From positions 1-57,494 of the forward strand of contig CALUPN010000001.1 in the NCBI GenBank assembly GCA_944322625.1: a DNA stretch of 57,494 nucleotides. Reading direction: 5' to 3'. The stretch comes from Candidatus Gastranaerophilales bacterium (lineage in GTDB: Bacteria > Cyanobacteriota > Vampirovibrionia > Gastranaerophilales > Gastranaerophilaceae). A model generated the notes under the pieces. The model saw only the letters and a program-made list of their open reading frames with translations. It was not told the origin of the DNA and did no database searches. Positions 3,544 to 50,364 of this stretch are shown here, piece by piece; the stretch's first letter is position 1; each line of letters opens with the position of its first letter. The position numbers and the translations under genes were made by a program.

Positions 3544-3618
3544 ACGCTTGTCATCCAATGGTTAGGGTGCTGGTCTTATACACCAGTTATCTAGGTTCGA
3601 ATCCTAGCGAGCGTACCA
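3544..3618 (+). tRNA. tRNA-Ile(UAU)
   Basis: Acceptor ACGCTTG/CGAGCGT, anticodon arm CTGGT-CTTATAC-ACCAG, GGTTCGAATCC, CCA end. Confidence 0.9.
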
Positions 3619-3621
3619 AAT

Positions 3622-3695
3622 ACACGGATAATTTAAAGGTAGAATATTGATCTCCAAAATCAATTGTATAGGTTCGAGTCCTAGTCTGTGTGCCA
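3622..3695 (+). tRNA. tRNA-Trp(CCA)
   Basis: Acceptor ACACGGA/TCTGTGT, loop CTCCAAA, T arm, CCA. Confidence 0.9.
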
Positions 3696-3698
3696 TAT

Positions 3699-3775
3699 TG
3701 ACGAATGGAGAAATTGGTAAACTCACTGGTTTTTGGCACCAGTATTTGATAGTTCGAGTCTATCTTCGTCAGCCA
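3699..3775 (+). tRNA. tRNA-Gln(UUG)
   Basis: Acceptor TGACGAA/TTCGTCA, loop TTTTGGC, CCA. Confidence 0.9.
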
Positions 3776-3780
3776 TGTTT

Positions 3781-3857
3781 TGCGGGTTGGTAGAAGTGGT
3801 TATCTCGTCGCCCTCATAAGGCGAAGTTCGTTGGTTCGAATCCAACATCCGCAACCA
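3781..3857 (+). tRNA. tRNA-Met(CAU), initiator-like body
   Basis: Acceptor TGCGGGT/ATCCGCA, arm TCGCC-CTCATAA-GGCGA, CCA. Confidence 0.85.
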
Positions 3858-28695: not shown

Positions 28696-28772
28696 TGGAG
28701 CACCATACCCGAATTGCACGAGTGTCTATTTGATTTGCAGTCAAATCGGCTTCGCTTCTTGCCTAATGGTGC
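28696..28772 (-). tRNA. tRNA-Cys(GCA)
   Basis: Reverse strand acceptor GCACCAT/ATGGTGC, arm TTTGA-CTGCAAA-TCAAA, CCA; atypical T loop TGCAATT. Confidence 0.85.
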
Positions 28773-31264: not shown

Positions 31265-31780
31265 ATGAGAGAAATATTTAAAGACATAAAGGGTTATAAT
31301 GGTTTATATCAAATAAGTAATTGCGGAAAAGTTAAAAGTTTGAAAAGAAATATAATTTTAAGGCCATCAGTTAACCATAAAGGATATTTGCATGTAATTT
31401 TATATAAAAATGGTAATTCTAAAATAGGTAGAATACATCGTTTGGTTGCAGAAACATTTATACATAATCCAGAAAATAAACCTCAAGTCAATCATATTGA
31501 CGGAAACAAAAGAAACAACAATGTTAATAATTTAGAATGGGTAACAAATAGTGAAAACCAAAAACACGCTTTTAAAACGGGATTACAGACTAATAAAGGT
31601 AATAATAATCCACGTGCAAGAAAAATAAATCAATACAATCTAAATGGTGAATTAATAAAAACGTGGAATAGTTGCTATGATATCACCAAAAAACTAGGTA
31701 TAGATAGATCGTCTATTTGGAGATGTTGTGTAGGAAAATGCCATAAAAGTCATAATTATATATGGAGATATGCTGAATAA
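31265..31780 (+). CDS. NUMOD4-HNH homing endonuclease with C-terminal NUMOD1-like domain
   Basis: YQISNCGKVKS, HRLVAETF, VNHIDGNK.NN...NLEW. Confidence 0.9.
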   Translation: MREIFKDIKGYNGLYQISNCGKVKSLKRNIILRPSVNHKGYLHVILYKNGNSKIGRIHRLVAETFIHNPENKPQVNHIDGNKRNNNVNNLEWVTNSENQKHAFKTGLQTNKGNNNPRARKINQYNLNGELIKTWNSCYDITKKLGIDRSSIWRCCVGKCHKSHNYIWRYAE

Positions 31781-33121: not shown

Positions 33122-34204
33122 TTAATCTTCTCCTTTTTCTTTTACTTTTGTTAATCTGTATGTAATACTATCTTTCATATAATTTTCATATGTCTTTGGA
33201 TGGTCTTGCTTGAATAATTTTTCGTCAAATTTCTTGCTTACCGTCCCACTTAATTTATATGTTCCATATTGTACTTTTGTTTCATTTTCACCAAGCAATT
33301 CCATCATTTTTTCTTTAATTGAACTTTCCACAGTTTTTAATGTTTTTTCTAAATCATCAAGTGAATTATTCTTACGAATAGTATTAATTTCATCTTGTAA
33401 GAAACTTGCATAATTTATCAGAGAATCTAAATCATTATCGTTACCTGGTTGTGTTTCTCGCATGATGTCTAAGTATTCTTTGTCTTTTATTTCATCAAAT
33501 CTTGGTGAAACTCCATTTTCAATATGATTATTCCACCACTCCTCACAATATTTTATGATATCTTCAAATGTCATTAATTTTCCATTTACATCAACAACAA
33601 TATCTTTTAATTTCTTAACAACAATGATTGTATTTTTTTCTGTTGGCTTGAATTGTTCAGGATGATTGTAATCGTCATCTTGCAAGAAGGCACATATAAA
33701 CACGATACGATCAATACCTTTTAAGTAAGCATATTCTGCACCTTGTAACAAATATGTAATTGGAACATTATTGTTTTCCCATTCCTGTGGCTTTGAACTC
33801 GTCTTACATTCTATAATTGCCGTAAGTGTTTTCATATCATCTTCTGTACAAACGGCGTCCATTACACCACCGAAAACGTTGCTATCGTTTACAAAGTTAT
33901 TATATCTATATGTATCAATGTTATTTCCATAGTATTCTTCAATACTCATTGTATTTGGAAATTTTTTTGCAATTAAATCAATAAGTTTTGGCTCAATTGC
34001 TTTACCAGCCAAAGTATATTTGGTATCTTCAAACGGTAATTTTACTAACTTTGTAATTTCTGCCCAAGCACCGAATGGTGTTTGATACGGATTAAGTCCT
34101 AGAACACTAGCCATTCTATGACCAGTGATTCTAAGTCTTTGTTTTGGTGGTTCATTCAATACAATATGTTGTCTATCTTCCGAATAGTTCCATTCCTTAG
34201 CCAT
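33122..34204 (-). CDS. YqaJ/lambda-Exo-like exonuclease
   Basis: ASVLGLNPYQTP, G..IEP, D...IECKT. Confidence 0.85.
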   Translation of the reverse strand: MAKEWNYSEDRQHIVLNEPPKQRLRITGHRMASVLGLNPYQTPFGAWAEITKLVKLPFEDTKYTLAGKAIEPKLIDLIAKKFPNTMSIEEYYGNNIDTYRYNNFVNDSNVFGGVMDAVCTEDDMKTLTAIIECKTSSKPQEWENNNVPITYLLQGAEYAYLKGIDRIVFICAFLQDDDYNHPEQFKPTEKNTIIVVKKLKDIVVDVNGKLMTFEDIIKYCEEWWNNHIENGVSPRFDEIKDKEYLDIMRETQPGNDNDLDSLINYASFLQDEINTIRKNNSLDDLEKTLKTVESSIKEKMMELLGENETKVQYGTYKLSGTVSKKFDEKLFKQDHPKTYENYMKDSITYRLTKVKEKGED

Positions 34205-35048
34205 TATTTTCTACCTCTTTTAATTTCTTTTTTACTTTTAAATCAATTTCAAGAATATCTGCCGAACTTAATGTTCCGCTCATAAGTTTATTTAATGTTG
34301 GTGTTCCATATTCTTGATTACCAGTTAATTCTCTAATTTTCATAATATTTTCGCATACCGCTTTAATATCTTCTTCATCACTAGGTTCTTGTTGAACTTG
34401 TTTTACTACTTCTTGCTTAATTTCCTCTTTCTTTTTTTCTGGTACATATACAGGTACTTTTGGTTTTGATTTTTCTTCCGGTTCTTCAATCTCTTCCTCC
34501 AGAACATCTTTTGGTGTAAAGTTTTTATAGAACCAATTTCTAAACGCCATTGAACTTGCACTAGCAACCGCTTTGTCAATGGTATCACTACCTTGTGCAA
34601 TTGTGATATATTCTTTGCATGCTCCTGTTTCTAAATCTGTAAATGTTGCAACAGTTTTAACAGTTGCTACATGAATCGGAAGTGAGTTTGCAGGTTTTGT
34701 TAGTTCTTTATCAAATTGAATTAAATCTGTTGTTTCAAATGAGAAGTCAAGACCAACTTCAATTGCTAATTCTTGAATCGCATCATAGAATTGATCAATA
34801 CTATAATAATCTCCACCACCCAAAATCTTTGGTAATTCTTTATCTAGTACGAATTTTCTTTCTCTTACTCTCTTTCTAAATTCATTTAACTTTTTAAGTA
34901 ACATAACTTTCATTGTTCTTTCATCATATTCTTTTACTTCTTCCACCTTTTTACTTTCTCCTTTCATTTTATTTACCATGTCCATTAATTTTTCGTTCTG
35001 TTCCATGGACGTTTGTAATTTTTGCTCTAACTCTTGTTTTGTAGCCAT
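34197..35048 (-). CDS. ERF-like ssDNA annealing protein (internal start)
   Basis: Own promoter and AAAGGAG RBS before MATKQ; G.D..DKAV..A.S.A.R motif. Confidence 0.7.
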   Translation of the reverse strand: MATKQELEQKLQTSMEQNEKLMDMVNKMKGESKKVEEVKEYDERTMKVMLLKKLNEFRKRVRERKFVLDKELPKILGGGDYYSIDQFYDAIQELAIEVGLDFSFETTDLIQFDKELTKPANSLPIHVATVKTVATFTDLETGACKEYITIAQGSDTIDKAVASASSMAFRNWFYKNFTPKDVLEEEIEEPEEKSKPKVPVYVPEKKKEEIKQEVVKQVQQEPSDEEDIKAVCENIMKIRELTGNQEYGTPTLNKLMSGTLSSADILEIDLKVKKKLKEVENNG

Positions 35049-36014
35049 ATCTTTTTCTCCTTTCTGTATGTTATTATTGTAGCATAATATATCATAGTAG
35101 TCAATATTTTTTTTGTCATTTTCAATTATTTTTATTAGTTCTTCTTTTTTTGTACTTTTATCAACTTGTAATCCCAAATTGGAAGCAATCTGCAAAAGTT
35201 CTTCTTTCTTATATTCTTCAAGTCTTTTAATACCAAGGAAATCGTTTACCCGTTTGTTTGCTAAGTCAATATACCATTCTTTATTAATATCGTCAATCTT
35301 ACATTGATTTGCATTATCTACTATCGGATTCGGAGGTTGATTCGCCAAACTATCACGTCTACCATCCGGTTTTACTTTTATAATCGCACCACTTGAAATA
35401 TTACCTGCATAGATACGATTATTTCTTTGAAGTTCAATATCTCCATTTGGTGATTCTTGCACGCATTTTTCATAAGTAGAGCCAAGATGTGATATGATTT
35501 GGAAACGAAATATATCATCGCACTTATTAATTGTTTCCTCCGTTGGAATATCAAAAAGTAATTTTTTTAATATTGCTTCGGATACGATCGTCATAGAATT
35601 ACTTTTCAAATCATCTTTAAATTTGTAATGAAAAACGTGTTTTTCTTTATCCCATGTAAATATATGTTTTCCTGTGAAGTTTCCACCTTTATAGTTTACC
35701 TTGTAATCGTTATTTCCAGTCTGTACGATTTCGACGTAATTATTGACATCTCGCATGATTATTTTTACAACTTTATCTTCTTCTAATTCAAGTCCAGTTA
35801 GTTTTTGCCAATCGTCGAGTACTTTATGGGCTTGTTCTTTATATTCTTCATCTACTTCATATAAAATTGCATCTGTGTTGCAGCTAATTGTTTCCAATGT
35901 TGGTACTGTTTTTAAATCATATATTAATTGTAATATAAATAATTGTCCTGTGGTACATATACTAAATCCTTGTAAATTATCATATAAATCATTGAACTTC
36001 GCTCTAAGACCGCC
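34197..36014 (-). CDS. DNA polymerase (family B-like) C-terminal part, in frame with the ERF-like protein
   Basis: GGLRAKFNDLYD...GQL, NTDA motif C, RDVNNY; frame open upstream of track start 35897. Confidence 0.75.
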   Translation of the reverse strand, partial: GGLRAKFNDLYDNLQGFSICTTGQLFILQLIYDLKTVPTLETISCNTDAILYEVDEEYKEQAHKVLDDWQKLTGLELEEDKVVKIIMRDVNNYVEIVQTGNNDYKVNYKGGNFTGKHIFTWDKEKHVFHYKFKDDLKSNSMTIVSEAILKKLLFDIPTEETINKCDDIFRFQIISHLGSTYEKCVQESPNGDIELQRNNRIYAGNISSGAIIKVKPDGRRDSLANQPPNPIVDNANQCKIDDINKEWYIDLANKRVNDFLGIKRLEEYKKEELLQIASNLGLQVDKSTKKEELIKIIENDKKNIDYYDILCYNNNIQKGEKDMATKQELEQKLQTSMEQNEKLMDMVNKMKGESKKVEEVKEYDERTMKVMLLKKLNEFRKRVRERKFVLDKELPKILGGGDYYSIDQFYDAIQELAIEVGLDFSFETTDLIQFDKELTKPANSLPIHVATVKTVATFTDLETGACKEYITIAQGSDTIDKAVASASSMAFRNWFYKNFTPKDVLEEEIEEPEEKSKPKVPVYVPEKKKEEIKQEVVKQVQQEPSDEEDIKAVCENIMKIRELTGNQEYGTPTLNKLMSGTLSSADILEIDLKVKKKLKEVENNG

Positions 36015-36016
36015 AG

Positions 36017-36247
36017 TTAAGTGTACGCATTTAGGGGTAACTTAAGACCAGATTTTAAATCATCATTAGTAAGTCCTAAAGGCTTTAAAAAATCTTCTGT
36101 TAGTTTTCCTTTTTTTGCTTTCATACGCATAGAAAGCAAATTTACATAAGCATCCTTATCTTGTTGATTTCGACTCGAATAACCGTACAATCTTACTAAA
36201 TTAGGATAAAGTGAACTCACATCCCAGTTCTCCAAAATACGTGTCAT
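36017..36247 (-). CDS. DNA polymerase middle fragment (motif A and start of motif B)
   Basis: DVSSLYPN and KLPLNAY. Confidence 0.85.
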   Translation of the reverse strand: MTRILENWDVSSLYPNLVRLYGYSSRNQQDKDAYVNLLSMRMKAKKGKLTEDFLKPLGLTNDDLKSGLKLPLNAYT

Positions 36248-36855
36248 TATTCATCACCCCCATCCTCGACATACTCAAAAGACCATCCAAGATATTTCTT
36301 ATGTGTTTTGCATGATTCTGATATTCCTCCTCGTTTTGTTTTCACACAAAATATACCTAGTGAACAAGAAAAAATACTATCGAATAACAACACATTATCA
36401 TCTTTTTTTGCTATTACTTTTTTTGCTTTTATTTTACCTCTACCTTTAAATCTTCCATCATATTCATATTTATAATATTTCTCAGTGTTTTCTTTATTCG
36501 TTAACCATTGTAAGTTATCAACTCTATTATTTAATGAGTTATTATCTATATGGTCTGCTATTGGTTTATTTTCTGGATTATGGATAAATGCTTCGGCAAT
36601 CACTCTGTTAACTCGTCTATAATAATGTTTACCATGAGCTTTTAAATCAACTTGATAATAACCATCTTTTTTTAAAAGTTGTTTTAATATTCTTCCATTC
36701 TTAGAAGTACCATTTCTAGGTATTGTTTTTATTCTTCCATAGTTACTACATACATAACAATCTGGAGCATCTACAACTGGTTTCCAAATTTCATTAGGCA
36801 AATCTTCAAGATTAAGCCATCTATCAGTATTCACGTCAATATCGATTAATCGCAT
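36247..36855 (-). CDS. NUMOD4-HNH homing endonuclease inserted in the polymerase gene
   Basis: EIWKPV..Y.CSNYGRIK, DHIDNN..NN..NLQW. Confidence 0.9.
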   Translation of the reverse strand: MRLIDIDVNTDRWLNLEDLPNEIWKPVVDAPDCYVCSNYGRIKTIPRNGTSKNGRILKQLLKKDGYYQVDLKAHGKHYYRRVNRVIAEAFIHNPENKPIADHIDNNSLNNRVDNLQWLTNKENTEKYYKYEYDGRFKGRGKIKAKKVIAKKDDNVLLFDSIFSCSLGIFCVKTKRGGISESCKTHKKYLGWSFEYVEDGGDE

Positions 36856-37709
36856 TTGAAATCACATCCGTTATCATATTTATACGTGGTTAGTTTTGCA
36901 CCATGTATTCCACCATGACCCAATTGTATCACACATTCATCATACTGTAAAGATGGTGCTATACTTTCGTAGTTTAAATCATTATGCTTTATAACGTCAT
37001 CTATATAATTTAAGAAAGACTTCGGTATTTTCGATTTATCAACTTGCTTTGGATATACATACTTAAACGGATCATCATGATTCTTTCTTTTTGCTCCCAG
37101 TAACACTGATGTTAGTTTCGCATCAGTCAAACTCATTCCATATTTCAAATCCATTTTTCCAAGTCTTGCAATAATATATTTTGACTTATATTTATTTATC
37201 AACATTTCAAATATTGGAAACAATGCTTGAACATCACAAGTACAGTAATATAGTACTTCCTCATATTGTTCTTTCGTCCATTTTGTTGGTAAATCAAAAG
37301 GAACAGTTGTTTCAGTAATGTTTAACCTTAACGAGCCTTCCAATTCCTTTAAGGATTTCCTAGGAACAATTTCATTGAACAAATCCCACATGATTGGAAG
37401 TTCCATATATCCGCAATCAATATCCCAACCATTTCCTCCACCAATAATGTAATCGCTGACATCTTTTATTTCTTCTGGTGTATATCCCGCAAGCAAGCAT
37501 TTCAATATATACTTATCGTATGCGTTACAGTTATATCCCATAAGAATTGGTTTCTTTTGGTCTAAAAAATTTTGTACGTCATTTGGTAACGAATTATGAA
37601 AAACAAATCTTTCTTTTGTTCTATACGATATAAAAACAAATAGTGTATCGTGGGCAAACACTTCACAGTCGAATCCGTATAAGTTATCTAACAATTCATC
37701 GAAACTCAT
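36846..37709 (-). CDS. DNA polymerase N-terminal 3'-5' exonuclease fragment
   Basis: FDCEVF (ExoI), GYN..YD (ExoII), YC..DV (ExoIII), GGIHG. Confidence 0.85.
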   Translation of the reverse strand: MSFDELLDNLYGFDCEVFAHDTLFVFISYRTKERFVFHNSLPNDVQNFLDQKKPILMGYNCNAYDKYILKCLLAGYTPEEIKDVSDYIIGGGNGWDIDCGYMELPIMWDLFNEIVPRKSLKELEGSLRLNITETTVPFDLPTKWTKEQYEEVLYYCTCDVQALFPIFEMLINKYKSKYIIARLGKMDLKYGMSLTDAKLTSVLLGAKRKNHDDPFKYVYPKQVDKSKIPKSFLNYIDDVIKHNDLNYESIAPSLQYDECVIQLGHGGIHGAKLTTYKYDNGCDFKCD

Positions 37710-42781: not shown

Positions 42782-43642
42782 CTAATTTGCATTGATAAAT
42801 GGAATTGCACTATCTGTCATTGTTGTTGGTAACTGTCCGTTCCATTTTTCAATAAATTGTTGTGCTATGATTTGATCTGTCAATGATTGTTGCAACAAAG
42901 CATTTGCTTCTGCCTCACCTTGTGCCTCAACTTTTTTCTTTTCTGCGTCAATTTTAGCCTTTTCTAACTGATTCTTAGACGTTTCCACTTCTTGTTCTGC
43001 AACTGCCTTTTGTTCAATTGCTTGATTATATGATTCGCTAAAATCAAAATTATTAATTGAAACTGCTACACTATTAATTCCATACAATGAAATTCGTTCG
43101 TCTAATGTATTATTAATAGCAAGAGAAACATCACTACGTTTTGTAACCAATTCTTCTGCCGTATATTGTGAAATAACTGCCTTGATTGTTTCTTGAATTG
43201 CTGGTTCTAACACTGTTGTTTGATAATTAGTTCCAACAGTTTTGTATAAATCAACCGCTTTTGTTCCGTCAATCTGGTAATTGATAGAAACTTTGATGTT
43301 ATTTACAATTTGCAAATCTTTTGTTGACGTTGAAAATGCTTCCTCGTTTTCATACTTTTGTACCTTTACATTTATTTTTTTCATATCCTCAAAAGGTAGT
43401 TTGAAAACAATTCCTGTATCAGTTGTACTGCTCACAATTTCTCCAAATCTAACTTTGATCCCAACTTCGCCAGTTTTAATTGTTGTGAAACAACCGAAAA
43501 CGTTAAGTAGTAGGAATAAGAAACCAAGCAACATTCTTGGTCTTGCTTTCCACGAAATTGTTTCCGCATCTAAATCGATGCGTACACCTAAAACTAGAAC
43601 TGCTAAAATTGTCAAAATAACGCTTACAATAATTAAAATCAT
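42782..43642 (-). CDS. SPFH/prohibitin (band 7) membrane protein
   Basis: GEVG...FG, TKDLQ, AIEQK.VAEQ, EKWNGQLP. Confidence 0.9.
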   Translation of the reverse strand: MILIIVSVILTILAVLVLGVRIDLDAETISWKARPRMLLGFLFLLLNVFGCFTTIKTGEVGIKVRFGEIVSSTTDTGIVFKLPFEDMKKINVKVQKYENEEAFSTSTKDLQIVNNIKVSINYQIDGTKAVDLYKTVGTNYQTTVLEPAIQETIKAVISQYTAEELVTKRSDVSLAINNTLDERISLYGINSVAVSINNFDFSESYNQAIEQKAVAEQEVETSKNQLEKAKIDAEKKKVEAQGEAEANALLQQSLTDQIIAQQFIEKWNGQLPTTMTDSAIPFINAN

Positions 43643-45852: not shown

Positions 45853-47874
45853 CTAACTTAATAAATTTATGATCGTATCCTTTTGAATACTTTCAACAGA
45901 CAAATCAATATCAACTGGAACTTCTCTTGGTACTTTTGTTTCTGTGCCTAGTTCATCATATACTGTATCATATACTGTTACAGTTGGTTTATCGGTCAAG
46001 ATTGCTCCTGATTCTTTCAACAAATTATTCAATTTCAATTGTGTTTTGGAATATGCTTGTAAATAATCGAATACTCCCATTGTTATTTTATTTCTACTTG
46101 ACGTTGATACACTAAGTCCTGCTGTAAAATCATTGAAATAAAATCTAATAGTATCTCCAATGACGATAAATCCGACAATCTTTTGTCTTTCTGTATTCTT
46201 AACAACCATATCTACTTTTTCCAAGATATTGTTTGGATTAATTACATAGTTTCTTCTAATATCTGGTTGAAAATTATCAGATTTTGCAATCACAAATTCA
46301 AATGGAACATCTTTGCTATTATATGTGAACATGTTACATGTCACTAAGAATGCACTATGTCCATAGTTCTTTCCAACATAGAACAACTCTGTCGCACCGT
46401 TTGGTAACTTAGCATCTGTTATATCTCCACTAAACAATATATTAGATGAACTACTTCTATAACTAGCATCCCATCCGAATACTTCTGACTTATTCATTTG
46501 TTTTAAATCCAAATCAACTCGTTCTTCTGTTAATGTCCTAAATGTATTTGAATATGGAATAGTAGAACCATATCTTTCAAGATTTTTCCAATGTATTCCA
46601 TAGACCATATCAGATTCCCTTGGTACTTCCAAGTATGATCCTTGTGGAATATTTCCAGAAAATTGTTTTTCACTTGTAGGTGCGGAATATGTTACGTTTG
46701 ATGGAATATAAATAGTCTTTCCTTTTACTTTTTCGGAAACTCTATTTTCTAGATGTTTTCTGACAATTTCTGTTCTCTTAACAAGTGTTAAAAATCTATT
46801 TTCTCTTCTTTCATGTTTTAACGTACTAACATATGACTTTCCGTTTCTAATACGATAAACAATATTATCATTTCCACCTAACGCATAAAGCATGGCATTT
46901 AAGATACGAATTTCTCTGAAAATCGTTATATCATCAAGTTTTTTAGTTAGTTCTTCATCAGAAATTTCTACTTTTTCATCTGTTAAACAATCTAACACGT
47001 TCTTAGGAAGTGGTTTATGATTATCATCTGCTAGTTTTCTAAGTTTATTTATGACACCATTCAATTCTTTTCTAGTAGAACTTTTTTCACTTGTATTTTC
47101 ATCACATTTTTTTACTTTTAATGCTAAGAATAAATTCTTATTTCTTAAAAATATTGATGATAACTTTTCATAGCCTTTTGGTGTTTTTGTAAGATATGAT
47201 TGAATCATTCCCAATGCCAGTTTTTTATCACTTTTTCTAACCATTTCAATCATTTCTGAACTTTGTATTTTCAAAGTACTTCCAGTTAATTTGAACAACA
47301 AGTATTTGAAAAATTCGTCTGGATTACGAGGCATGATGTTATATTTATCATACAACGTTATCTTAACTTCTCGGTTCTTGATTTCGTCAAATCTATCTTT
47401 ATCGATAAAATCTGATAATACCATGATGTCTTTTACAGTTTGTTCTGACAATGCGATTCCACTTGTAAGTAGATTCATTATTTTATCAGTCAATTCTTGT
47501 TCTGTATATGGACGGATTGAAATAAATTCAATTTGTTCCGCATCAAGTTCTGGAATTTCTAACTTTTCTTTTGGAATATATACCAAATCACTATCATACA
47601 TTCCTAACGATTCGAAACCATAAGTTGTAATATAATGAATCATTTGTTGTGCAATCAAATCTTCAATTGGTGCGTTTTTTACAATCTCAAAATCTTTGTG
47701 AAATGTTTGATTCCATTTTTCACCGTTTTTTCCATACATTTCGATTGCATTTTTTACGGTTTCTTCATCTGCCGTGCTAGGAATCAATAGTCCATACTTT
47801 AAAGCATATTCGTTGATATTATCTGATTTTTCTCCTAAATATCCTTTAAATAATCTTAAAATTTCTTTTTTCAT
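45853..47874 (-). CDS. 673-aa protein: helical N-terminal region plus C-terminal TerD-like domain; candidate RNA-binding partner of the upstream array
   Basis: GIHW...VDLDL...GW...FSGDITDA..PNGATE resembles TerD-family motifs. Confidence 0.6.
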   Translation of the reverse strand: MKKEILRLFKGYLGEKSDNINEYALKYGLLIPSTADEETVKNAIEMYGKNGEKWNQTFHKDFEIVKNAPIEDLIAQQMIHYITTYGFESLGMYDSDLVYIPKEKLEIPELDAEQIEFISIRPYTEQELTDKIMNLLTSGIALSEQTVKDIMVLSDFIDKDRFDEIKNREVKITLYDKYNIMPRNPDEFFKYLLFKLTGSTLKIQSSEMIEMVRKSDKKLALGMIQSYLTKTPKGYEKLSSIFLRNKNLFLALKVKKCDENTSEKSSTRKELNGVINKLRKLADDNHKPLPKNVLDCLTDEKVEISDEELTKKLDDITIFREIRILNAMLYALGGNDNIVYRIRNGKSYVSTLKHERRENRFLTLVKRTEIVRKHLENRVSEKVKGKTIYIPSNVTYSAPTSEKQFSGNIPQGSYLEVPRESDMVYGIHWKNLERYGSTIPYSNTFRTLTEERVDLDLKQMNKSEVFGWDASYRSSSSNILFSGDITDAKLPNGATELFYVGKNYGHSAFLVTCNMFTYNSKDVPFEFVIAKSDNFQPDIRRNYVINPNNILEKVDMVVKNTERQKIVGFIVIGDTIRFYFNDFTAGLSVSTSSRNKITMGVFDYLQAYSKTQLKLNNLLKESGAILTDKPTVTVYDTVYDELGTETKVPREVPVDIDLSVESIQKDTIINLLS

Positions 47875-47901: not shown

Positions 47902-48333
47902 GTGTCGATAAGTAACAAAATAACCCAAAATTATTTGCCTACTGGCGAAATAGGAACTTACTATGACACTTTTATATAATTTTAAATACCGGTGAGTAAT
48001 CTTATCACTTAACAGGTAATCGCTCTCAAAGCAAAATAGGAACTCACTATGGCATTTTTATAAATATTAGTACCTGAAACTAATTTTCAGTGATGGAGCG
48101 GTATTTCCCGCAGTCTTAAGGAAGTTTCTATGACACTATATTTTTATTTTATGGCGAAGAGTAATAACCATTCTCCATTACTATTTGTTATAAAGGAACT
48201 CTTTATGCCAAAATATAATCAAAATATAAGACGGATAGTAATACACTAGACCACTATTAACCTTTCGGCTAATTGATGGAGTTGAACCATCAGCGTTGGT
48301 TATCAGCCAACAAAATAGGAACTATCTCTGTCT
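47902..48333 (-). ncRNA. Array of five structured RNA units with a conserved covarying stem and variable, partly tRNA-like inserts
   Basis: Units 48229-48333, 48152-48210, 48070-48136, 47987-48054, 47902-47969 share stem-AUA-helix-UCCU-[insert]-UU-helix-C-stem. Confidence 0.85.
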
Positions 48334-48341
48334 ATGTATAG

Positions 48342-48370
48342 ATTGTATCATAGTATAATTTAATAGTCAA
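48342..48370 (-). promoter_or_regulatory. Promoter for the RNA array and 673-aa gene
   Basis: TTGACT-17-TACAAT with TG; predicted +1 at the first unit. Confidence 0.8.
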
Positions 48371-48613: not shown

Positions 48614-49333
48614 CTAATCCAAGTCAGACCATATATAATCTGATAATAAATTTCTGAATATTGCTTGTAAAACATTAACAACTATACTATTACCAGCTTG
48701 TTTATATAATTGTGTATTGGAATTAACTTTTTCTGCTTTATCAAAATCTTCATCATCAAATCCCATAAGTCTCCAAGTTTCCTTTGGTGTTAATTTTCTT
48801 ATTCTTAAATTATTAGTTACGCAACCAATATCAGGGCTTGTTTTTAATGTTGGTATCATTTCTTTTTGAACTGTACCTCTTTTTTTATCTATATTTGATA
48901 TATAAACACCGTTACCGTCAGTTGCTTCTAAATAACCTTGTTTAGTAGCATTTTTTATTAATAATGTATTTCCACTCAAACTAGTAGAACCTATTTTTGT
49001 TGTTAAACAAGGTGACAATCCGTTTTTTCTTATTCTCAATCCTTCGTCATATCGATAGTCTGCAACTACACATTTAGGATCTTTCCAATCCCTAGCACAT
49101 AAAGTATCACAATATTCTTTTTCTTGGATACGTCTATTGTTCTGATGAAATGTACTACATCTTATTTTTTCAATTTGTTCATCACTCAAATAGTATTTTT
49201 CATCAACATCATCCTCAAGGATGTCTTTTAATTTTAATTTTAACTCTTGTTTTGGTGGGAAAATAAAATTTAATTTTTTTATCTTTCCTTGTTTTTCTAA
49301 ATCATTTAATATATCTTCACACTTTTTATACAT
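48614..49333 (-). CDS. C5 cytosine methyltransferase, C-terminal part (TRD, motifs IX-X)
   Basis: RKLTPKETWRLMGF, YKQAGNSIVV; AGGTGG RBS before ATG 49333. Confidence 0.85.
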   Translation of the reverse strand: MYKKCEDILNDLEKQGKIKKLNFIFPPKQELKLKLKDILEDDVDEKYYLSDEQIEKIRCSTFHQNNRRIQEKEYCDTLCARDWKDPKCVVADYRYDEGLRIRKNGLSPCLTTKIGSTSLSGNTLLIKNATKQGYLEATDGNGVYISNIDKKRGTVQKEMIPTLKTSPDIGCVTNNLRIRKLTPKETWRLMGFDDEDFDKAEKVNSNTQLYKQAGNSIVVNVLQAIFRNLLSDYIWSDLD

Positions 49334-49847
49334 ATATCCACCTGTAACCTTTAACACTTCTTCGTTTTCCTTTACAACACTCACATATACTAGAAGTACT
49401 TATATTATTTTCCCGTCCAGCATCACTCATAGATTGATAAATGGTTTTTACACCATCTTTATCTATTCTAGCCACTTTTACTCTTGTTACGGTTATCATT
49501 TGTTCCACGTTTTTATGTTTTTCAGTTGCATATTCTTTTTCTCTATTTTCTCTCCAAGTAACTATTCTCATATTATCAAAAGAATAACCCTTACTATCGT
49601 CTAACCTATCAATAGATGGTACATCATCACTATTATAATTATTTAATGTCCAATTTTTAAAAAGAGTTGTAAATTCATCATAATAATTATCAATAATCCA
49701 TTTTTCTAAATCCCACCTATCAAAAGTCAAATCTCTTCCAAATTTTACTCTTTCTCTTTGTTGCATTCTTTTATAATGTGTATTAAACCAACCTGTCAAG
49801 GTGTACTTCGTTTTATTATATAATTTTTTATCTCTACTGTTTCCCAT
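49326..49847 (-). CDS. HNH-type endonuclease (SIDR.D family) with NUMOD1-like tail
   Basis: PSIDRLDDSKGYSFDNMRIVT; YQSMSDA...ICECCKG. Confidence 0.8.
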   Translation of the reverse strand: MGNSRDKKLYNKTKYTLTGWFNTHYKRMQQRERVKFGRDLTFDRWDLEKWIIDNYYDEFTTLFKNWTLNNYNSDDVPSIDRLDDSKGYSFDNMRIVTWRENREKEYATEKHKNVEQMITVTRVKVARIDKDGVKTIYQSMSDAGRENNISTSSICECCKGKRRSVKGYRWIYV

Positions 49848-50364
49848 CTTCTCTCACTCCTATAATAAAAATACGTTCTCTATGTTGGGGAATAGGGTCT
49901 GGATATCCTACTTCACAAGCATTTAACACATCCATAGTTACTTTATAACCATTGTCATTTAAAAAACTCAAATATTCCTCTAGTTGTGGTCTAAATCTTT
50001 CAGATAATATATTTTTAACATTTTCAGCGATTACATACTTGGGTTTTAACTTACTTATAATTCTCATCATCTCATACATTAATCCACTTCTAGTTTCACC
50101 TTTTATTATACCAGTTTGTTTGCCAGCTAGACTAATATCTTGACAAGGAAAACCACCACATAATAAATCAATATCTACATCTTTATCCCATTTGCAAATG
50201 TCTTGTGGTTCAAAGTTTGTATTATGAATAGCATTAAAACTTTTTACTGCATACTTATCTATTTCCACATAATCCACAATCTCAAAATCTATCCCTAATC
50301 TTTCAAGTGCTTTACTACAAGCACCTATTCCACCGAAAAGTTCTAATATTTTTAAAGTTTTCAA
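49834..50364 (-). CDS. dcm: C5 cytosine methyltransferase, N-terminal part (motifs I-VIII)
   Basis: ELFGGIG, GGFPCQD, ENV, QHRERIF. Confidence 0.9.
   Translation of the reverse strand: MKTLKILELFGGIGACSKALERLGIDFEIVDYVEIDKYAVKSFNAIHNTNFEPQDICKWDKDVDIDLLCGGFPCQDISLAGKQTGIIKGETRSGLMYEMMRIISKLKPKYVIAENVKNILSERFRPQLEEYLSFLNDNGYKVTMDVLNACEVGYPDPIPQHRERIFIIGVREDGKQ

Follow-up and report, generated by a model that had tools for sequence, protein, structure and literature searches.

A phage array of handle-tagged tRNA fragments with possible anticodon decoys

Introduction

Why would a phage place, directly in front of a single protein gene, a row of small RNA units of which two look like anticodon arms detached from any tRNA? 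The question is raised by the window analysed here, a stretch of DNA of 57,494 nt in its whole length. The sequence-only reading of this DNA had proposed that anticodon stem-loops of the Asn(GUU) and Gln(UUG) types are displayed as possible decoys for anticodon nucleases. So far, phages are known to counter tRNA-cutting defences with resistant tRNAs and with repair ligases. Modular mimics of the anticodon arm that do not decode would, if the proposal is true, constitute a third route, and their anticodon spectrum would list the tRNAs under attack in uncultured hosts.

Organisation of the array

The window is a tailed-phage contig, in which an ORF scan reveals terminase, portal, head, tape measure and replication genes, and its sequence is present in chicken-gut runs. 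On the minus strand a promoter-like site (48370-48342) precedes five repeated units (48334-47902), after which comes the gene of a 673-aa protein (47874-45853), the ribosome-binding site of which lies about 15 nt past the end of unit 5. The features are as follows.

48342-48370, minus strand: sigma-70-type promoter-like site just upstream of unit 1, 10/12 matches plus a TG extension (a consensus match only)
48229-48334, minus strand: unit 1, handle helix around the Ile(GAU) anticodon stem-loop at 48296-48310, the T arm at 48275-48291 and two other hairpins (z -2.65)
48152-48211, minus strand: unit 2, handle and short payload with an AAUGGUU motif (a recurrent class)
48070-48136, minus strand: unit 3, handle and a conserved hairpin class that is not of tRNA type, with CUGAAAA at 48084-48090
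47986-48056, minus strand: unit 4, handle, shortened D arm (48022-48032), position 26 (48021) and Asn(GUU) anticodon stem-loop (48004-48020)
47902-47970, minus strand: unit 5, handle, shortened D arm (47937-47946), position 26 (47936) and Gln(UUG)-type anticodon stem-loop (47919-47935)
45853-47874, minus strand: partner gene, 673 aa, with an N-terminal helical region and a C-terminal TerD-like domain (about residues 418-602)

Five promoter consensus sites were found against 7.2 in shuffles; relatives have a similar site at the same place. Neither ARAGORN nor Rfam makes a call inside the array, units 4 and 5 having no acceptor stem and no T arm, and at gathering level Rfam finds four tRNAs only in the window. 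The tRNA genes of the window lie at 3544-3857 (plus strand) and 28696-28772 (minus strand) and comprise Ile(UAU), Trp, Gln(UUG) and Met, with Cys called weakly; neither Asn nor Ile(GAU), the anticodons displayed by units 4 and 1, belongs to this set. Payloads of at least 28 nt have no informative match in genome G000. The partner gene occurs in 0 of 100 relatives of G000, which therefore cannot be called the demonstrated host.

Two units carry anticodon-arm mimics

Every sequence that the sequence-only reading had described was recovered at its place on the minus strand. In unit 4, the mini hairpin is followed by one nucleotide and by a 5-bp stem with the loop CUGUUAA; in unit 5, hairpin and stem are likewise as described, with the loop UUUUGGG, which is close to the loop UUUUGGC of the phage tRNA-Gln. 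The mini hairpins are thus real, but that reading overlooked both their mimicry of a D arm and the complete permuted tRNAs of the relatives. By the established numbering of tRNA and the accepted meaning of positions 26-43, the mini hairpin is, judged by its sequence, a shortened D arm: a D stem, one nucleotide, then the anticodon stem. Units 4 and 5 both possess the full set of features by which we recognise a mimic of the tRNA anticodon arm, namely a D stem, a single spacer nucleotide and a 5-bp stem that closes a 7-nt loop with U33 and purine 37.

The anticodon-like arms of the two units are real and lie far above chance. Of 5000 dinucleotide shuffles per unit, 0.8% for unit 4 and 1.0% for unit 5 contain a 5-bp hairpin with a YU-NNN-R-N loop. 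The loop of unit 4 is an exact real tRNA loop, which 0.06% of the shuffles attain, while that of unit 5 is absent from a reference set of 101 loops and has an atypical G38. For the free RNA, ViennaRNA predicts a pair probability of 0.02 for the anticodon stem of unit 4 (+2.3 kcal/mol from the minimum, another fold being favoured) and of about 0.45 for that of unit 5; most pairs have 0.65-0.98 in 7/9 homologous units.

The Phe-type CUGAAAA of unit 3 had already been doubted in the sequence-only reading, and rightly so: it has no stem and is conserved neither in locus L033 nor in the four further class members listed, and therefore it is not an anticodon loop.

tRNA-type loops are enriched in homologous arrays

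In 149 loci, fetched by the protein, together with the window, a parser recognised 272 distinct closed units, distributed over 106 loci. Removal of 7 badly closed units and clustering at 80% left 148 payloads that have no T loop (set 1), and 26 of them have a YU-NNN-R-N loop on at least 4 pairs, against 3.6 ± 1.9 in shuffles. Five other loop patterns used as controls gave 1, 8, 2, 2 and 2 payloads against about 3-4, and loops of 5, 6, 8 and 9 nt gave 8, 3, 5 and 10 against 3-4. Two T-loop variants were then taken out, which left 146 payloads, 24 with the loop. Sets 2 and 3 were found by the handle, and payloads similar to earlier ones were removed. The loop count against shuffles that had been suggested by the sequence-only reading gave enrichment in all three sets of homologous arrays (24/146 vs 3.7, 15/141 vs 3.1 and 10/44 vs 1.3), the controls not being comparably enriched. 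Exact real tRNA loops, by reference to 101 loops from the tRNAs of G000 and of the loci, occur in 34 of the 331 non-redundant payloads without a T arm (17, 13 and 4 by set) compared with 3.2 in shuffles; these ratios, like the z-scores, overstate the significance because the units share ancestry. The enriched units span gut and environmental clades, with partner proteins 30-94% identical to that of the window.

The geometry of the D arm is similarly recurrent. A GCY...RGC hairpin followed by one base, a 5-bp stem and a 7-nt loop of any sequence was found in 15/331 payloads without a T arm vs 0.47 in shuffles. Varying the spacer from 0 to 4 nt gave 1, 15, 3, 0 and 2 payloads, and varying the loop length from 4 to 10 nt gave 0, 1, 1, 15, 1, 0 and 0. 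In the 15 loops, the sequence of which had been left unconstrained, U33 is present in 14/15, U36 in 13/15, purine 37 in 15/15 and A38 in 13/15; the stem pairs 28-42 to 31-39 vary (A-U, U-A, G-C, C-G) yet stay paired, and the outer pair 27-43 is formed in 10/15. The pattern was designed after sight of the window and of parts of sets 1 and 2, hence only set 3 is fully held out, and there it is present in 3/44 payloads vs 0.05. Some members (L214, L234) retain an obvious D-arm sequence.

Displayed anticodons and their switching

The 65 displayed anticodons comprise Asn GUU (13), Lys UUU (11), Ile GAU (6), Gln UUG (5), Thr GGU (5), Thr UGU (4) and Tyr (3), the others being present once or twice each. 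U36 is found in 45/65 of them vs 318/1061 (30%) by chance and 158/431 (37%) among the flanking phage tRNAs. The spectrum of the latter differs from that of the displayed anticodons, Met(CAU) being its commonest call. Loops with U36-A37 carry t6A, and class IIb synthetases read U35; the U36 skew equally fits other proteins that read U35 or U36.

The slots are also switched among close relatives. In unit 4, a loop of the Lys(UUU) type with an altered stem is found in L033, the protein of which is 94% identical, and in two runs of one study, X19 and X20, while runs X2 and X3 have the Asn type. The loop of unit 5 reads UUUUGAU in L033 and in runs X2, X3 and X19. The label RNA-Seq is borne by two runs, which were flagged as probable DNA and yielded strain variants only.

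AriB, the nuclease of PARIS, cleaves tRNA-Lys(UUU), -Thr(UGU) and -Asn(GUU) and does not cleave tRNA-Gln(UUG) (PMC12409363), and the displayed spectrum overlaps these three targets. AriB was modelled in contact with the anticodon stem as well as the D loop, and competition by viral tRNAs was proposed; a swap of the anticodon stem-loop alone failed to turn a tRNA into an AriB substrate (PMC12409363). Two further enzymes act on the same arms, RorSlfn5 cutting that of tRNA-Lys(UUU) (PMC13056530) and P2 OLD removing that of tRNA-Thr(UGU) (PMC12445682). The enrichment of loops in three sets, the lack of comparable enrichment in the controls and the overlap with AriB targets together support the view that a panel of anticodon arms is presented on a shared handle. 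The sequence-only reading is borne out to that extent; the role as baits or sensors for nucleases that it gave to the arms is a possible further step, and a Y-RNA-like adaptor role for other tRNA-binding proteins would fit the anatomy too. G39 is frequent in the mimics (Lys 7/11, Asn 5/10), but it is present in both tRNA-Lys(UUU) of G000 as well, which makes a test of AriB cleavability based on U39 uninformative.

Payloads range from stubs to permuted tRNAs

Most payloads do not display an anticodon. No anticodon arm is visible in 282/331 payloads without a T arm (about 80-85%) and in 48/71 of those with one. The long payloads run in the order anticodon loop, variable region, T arm, loop-closed acceptor stem, D arm, and a 5-bp anticodon stem is completed by the three final bases that follow the D arm, which makes the handle an extra arm at about positions 28-30. 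The anticodon loop is kept at its tRNA position in 23/71 T-arm payloads; the others are without it and are YrlA-like. The slot of unit 2 is occupied in L033 by a permuted tRNA-Ser(GGA) in full. Permuted units may conceivably be spliced into mature tRNAs; no tRNA could result from units 4 and 5.

Several other arrangements were observed. The mirror topology, in which the handle is inserted, permuted, in the anticodon arm of a tRNA of normal order, is found in L095, L097, L105, L134, L137, L138, L028, L155 and L176. In the long permuted units of L005, L006, L008, L042 and L048 the acceptor strand has a terminal CCA, after which a long A/U loop follows; such units could be opened by RNase P in the manner of Mycobacterium smegmatis YrlA. 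The last unit of L026 and L123 holds Ile(GAU) and Lys(UUU) anticodon stem-loops in tandem in one payload. The payload class of unit 3 (48093-48115, minus strand; GACU-stem-GGGAAA.ACC-stem-CUCCAU-like) recurs in the gut phages L005, L033, L038, L042 and L115 and resembles no part of a tRNA. Two kinds of payload, seen in the window (48164-48193, minus strand) and in L005, L021, L026, L028 and L081, may mimic the elbow formed by the D loop and the T loop: those with AAUGGUU, and those that consist of a T arm only, which UGGU precedes in 5/8 cases.

A covarying handle linked to one protein gene

In every unit the variable payload is enclosed by a handle in which a 5' GNCANA-NNNN-GUUCCU pairs with a 3' UAC-NNNN-CGCC-like strand. 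Viral contigs were scanned with the handle alone, pairing of the two NNNN stretches not being demanded; in the resulting 163 matches, Watson-Crick pairs occupy 91.7% of the positions of the handle helix vs 40% with shuffled partners, and 10/163 matches with at most two pairs look like chance. The partner gene lies within 2.5 kb of the handle in 56/80 loci with full flanks, in 53 of them downstream on the same strand; the remaining 24 include four chance-like loci and 14 with tRNA genes nearby. We infer from this linkage that the handle helix likely binds the neighbouring phage protein.

In L153, L163, L190, L195, L199, L203 and L214, large phages carry handle units dispersed through their tRNA clusters and have no partner gene within 2.5 kb of them. 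Conversely, on Erysipelotrichaceae genome contigs (L118-L121, L124, L128) the gene is accompanied by a single short handle unit directly before its ribosome-binding site, and some chromosomal loci have one short unit only, without an anticodon arm.

The 673-aa protein has 1312 relatives at 50% clustering. Its C-terminal part resembles TerD (Z 9.2, rmsd 4.4, 148 aligned residues). Residues 1-390 are confidently modelled (pLDDT 91.6); among the matches listed in fold searches this N-terminal part has no significant match to a known fold, the best one (Z 7.5) being to a short helical hairpin, and no Ro60 is included. Pfam, PHROGs, PADLOC and PDB sequences gave no useful match for the protein, and no catalytic or toxin domain was found in it by Pfam, PADLOC and fold searches. 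TROVE was not matched by the sequence of the protein or of 54 diverse relatives, PF05731 had no match in G000, and a profile comparison with 13 rows from TROVE loci, one of them a stub of 1 residue, returned a probability of 0.15%. The neighbours in the ESM Atlas, TerD (0.89) and Prok-RING_4 (0.82-0.87), serve as leads, all being under 0.9; Prok-RING_4 proteins are reportedly linked to ROT/TROVE-like repeats and TerD. A search for much longer fused forms, which is weak evidence, found none. The partner protein of the array is probably new.

The genes around it were surveyed as 475 flanking ORFs from 127 loci in 346 clusters, 128 representatives of which were scanned, without a background control. 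RNA-repair families are represented by HAD_SAK_2 (12/127 loci, one cluster from related loci), RlaP (5) and RNA ligase (4); these repair neighbours come largely from related loci, and no RNA ligase is found among the window ORFs scanned. NAD-salvage genes stand beside the partner gene in a few loci. The gene is situated within tRNA clusters in 54/127 loci, and it lies among tRNA genes in the cultured carriers S-CRM01 and S-CBWM1. In S-CRM01, a Synechococcus phage, five handle-like units accompany the gene, and a Lys-type loop is found in one of them; in Phass-1, another cultured carrier, no handle was found within 700 bases upstream of the gene.

Relation to known RNA systems

Type III toxin-antitoxin loci (ToxIN, AbiQ, CptIN) place an RNA repeat array ahead of one protein gene. 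The present array is similar in having repeats before one gene and differs in that its payloads change from unit to unit; no ToxN/AbiQ/CptN/TenpN-type RNase was matched for the partner protein in Pfam or PADLOC.

The closest resemblance is to the YrlA/YrlB Y RNAs, which together with Ro60 (Rsr) are found in bacteria and phages (PMC4201824; RF02553) and also comprise several small RNAs upstream of one protein gene. Y RNAs and the units described here both end in a bulged helix, the 5' motif of which is conserved (PMC4201824), and the YrlA order of T arm, closed acceptor stem and D arm occurs in the long units of relatives, but not in units 4 and 5 of the window. The motifs are similar in position and look but different in sequence, GNCGAAN0-1G in Y RNAs (PMC4201824) vs GNCANA in all five handles of the window. 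RF02553 has no match above its gathering threshold of 69 bits in the window, and among seven loci scanned it scores 29-37.5 bits, below that threshold, in 6 units of 5 loci. The partner has a TerD-like domain and no detectable similarity to TROVE, whereas Ro60 systems have TROVE. In motif, Rfam score and TROVE sequence the array departs from YrlA, and it is therefore not filed there. Many units here keep an intact anticodon arm, and minimal units in which a D arm is joined to an anticodon arm only find no mention in the sections of PMC4201824 covered. In that paper, protection by the tRNA fold is proposed for YrlA, and Y RNA is described as tethering Ro60 to PNPase (PMC4201824). ROT/TROVE proteins and TerD are mentioned in jumbo phages, with no such array in those passages, and the TerD-like domain is a proposed ligand sensor of the Ter anti-phage systems (PMC7824862).

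Phage tRNAs acting in conflicts over tRNA cleavage, those of T5 against PARIS AriB (PMC12409363) and a tRNA-Thr against P2 OLD (PMC12445682), share with the array the Lys(UUU), Thr(UGU) and Asn(GUU) anticodons. They are full, chargeable tRNAs which replace the cut host tRNA, while units 4 and 5, devoid of acceptor or T arm, could only compete or sense. RNA anti-CRISPRs (Racrs) are likewise phage small RNAs that mimic a host RNA against immunity, but they reportedly mimic CRISPR repeats and are solitary, without a handle or a cognate protein, unlike the units of the array (PMC10651486). Handle, protein and array are undescribed in the full-text literature searched, the scope of which excludes most subscription papers and all supplements, among them those of PMC4201824 and PMC7824862, which may bear on the matter.

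Possible functions of the array

We propose, with belief falling a little short of doubt, that the array encodes a Y-RNA-like particle with a non-Ro60 partner which presents anticodon-arm decoys against tRNA-cutting enzymes. The proposal draws on the tRNA geometry and loop enrichment of the payloads, the anticodon skew, the switch between Asn and Lys in one slot, the overlap with AriB targets, the covarying handle linked to the gene and the RNA-repair neighbours. Cuts in the A/U-rich spacers would release single RNAs from one transcript. The protein would bind each handle, as Ro60 binds the stem of a Y RNA, and would stabilise and fold the weak payload. Without an acceptor end the payload would be unable to decode and would compete with the host tRNA-Asn, -Lys, -Thr, -Ile and -Gln, titrating anticodon-arm nucleases of the PARIS/OLD/PrrC/Schlafen kind; the Asn and Lys anticodons would be swapped in the slots as host defences change. 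Several points argue against decoys. The stem-loop swap result with AriB implies that minimal arms may bind poorly (PMC12409363), the Ile(GAU) and Gln displays are not explained by AriB, and a catalytic nuclease is poorly absorbed by a decoy that it can cleave. Furthermore, the majority of the payloads is without an anticodon arm, and for the free RNA of unit 4 a fold without that arm is predicted.

The wider claim is more doubtful: a widespread, undescribed counter-defence particle, in which exchangeable tRNA pieces on handles (anticodon arms, elbows and permuted tRNAs in full), loaded by a non-Ro60 protein, would disarm by competition or report on tRNA-cutting immune nucleases, with anticodon slots tuned by an arms race. 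The array makes a question of the Y RNA field, the purpose of the tRNA-like module, testable by its natural minimal variants and the cultured carrier S-CRM01. A short covarying handle that accepts any payload would also be a useful part for RNA display if the protein binds it.

An adaptor role, which we consider rather unlikely, ranks first among the alternatives. Each unit would tether the phage protein to a different tRNA-handling protein of host or phage (a synthetase, an enzyme modifying the anticodon loop, an RNA repair enzyme, the ribosome), the anticodon arm being a docking site and not a sacrificial bait. A constant handle with varied payloads, many not based on an anticodon (T arm only, YrlA-like without anticodon, the unit-3 class), fits such a role, as do the repair-gene neighbours and the skew towards U35 and U36, which are read by class IIb synthetases and by the t6A machinery. 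The Y RNA that tethers Ro60 provides a precedent (PMC4201824). Slot-wise switching between Asn and Lys among close relatives, however, is more readily explained by an arms race than by a fixed partner, and no conserved partner gene is linked, the largest neighbour cluster being present in 12/127 loci.

It is improbable that the array functions as a tripwire, in which the bound RNAs would hold the protein inactive (or stable) until a cut in an anticodon arm by a nuclease of the host or of a rival phage frees it and so triggers a response, for example in lysis timing, in repair or by superinfection exclusion. The position of the array directly upstream of one gene behind one promoter-like site is consistent with this, a panel of anticodons would broaden the range of threats sensed, and the TerD-like domain is a proposed ligand sensor (PMC7824862). 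The lack of a catalytic or toxin domain in the protein (Pfam, PADLOC and fold searches) speaks against it; so do the many units in which there is nothing to cut and the handle units that lie far from the gene, inside tRNA clusters.

We give still less credence to the payloads being relics, that is, captured tRNA genes in erosion, kept as stable folds that shield the handle, with an anticodon devoid of any role. The gradient from whole tRNAs to A/U-rich stubs, the degenerate loops (A32, C33, G38), the frequent location of the gene in tRNA clusters and the protection by the tRNA fold that was proposed for YrlA (PMC4201824) all agree with erosion. Against it, D loops are freely rewritten, yet the spacing, the pairing of the stem and the loop positions 33, 36, 37 and 38 remain constant, and the anticodon spectrum is unlike that of the flanking tRNAs.

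Finally, a long 5' leader by which the protein controls itself, with the tRNA-like payloads as processing or sensing sites, is highly improbable: the closeness of unit 5 to the ribosome-binding site and the single unit kept there in Erysipelotrichaceae loci are in its favour, but several units per locus with distinct payloads and gene-less units in tRNA clusters point to free RNAs.

Other observations on the contig

Two further genes of the window are interrupted. A C5 DNA methyltransferase is split in two ORFs (48614-50364, minus strand) around a NUMOD-type endonuclease ORF (49326-49847), possibly as a result of an intron or a mobile insertion. The DNA polymerase is present as two ORFs around an HNH gene (31265-31780, 34197-37709), another HNH gene being on the opposite strand; group I introns are a possible cause of the split. 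A Band 7/SPFH gene (42782-43642, minus strand) is located about 2.2 kb downstream of the partner gene, and it adjoins the partner gene in L063 too.
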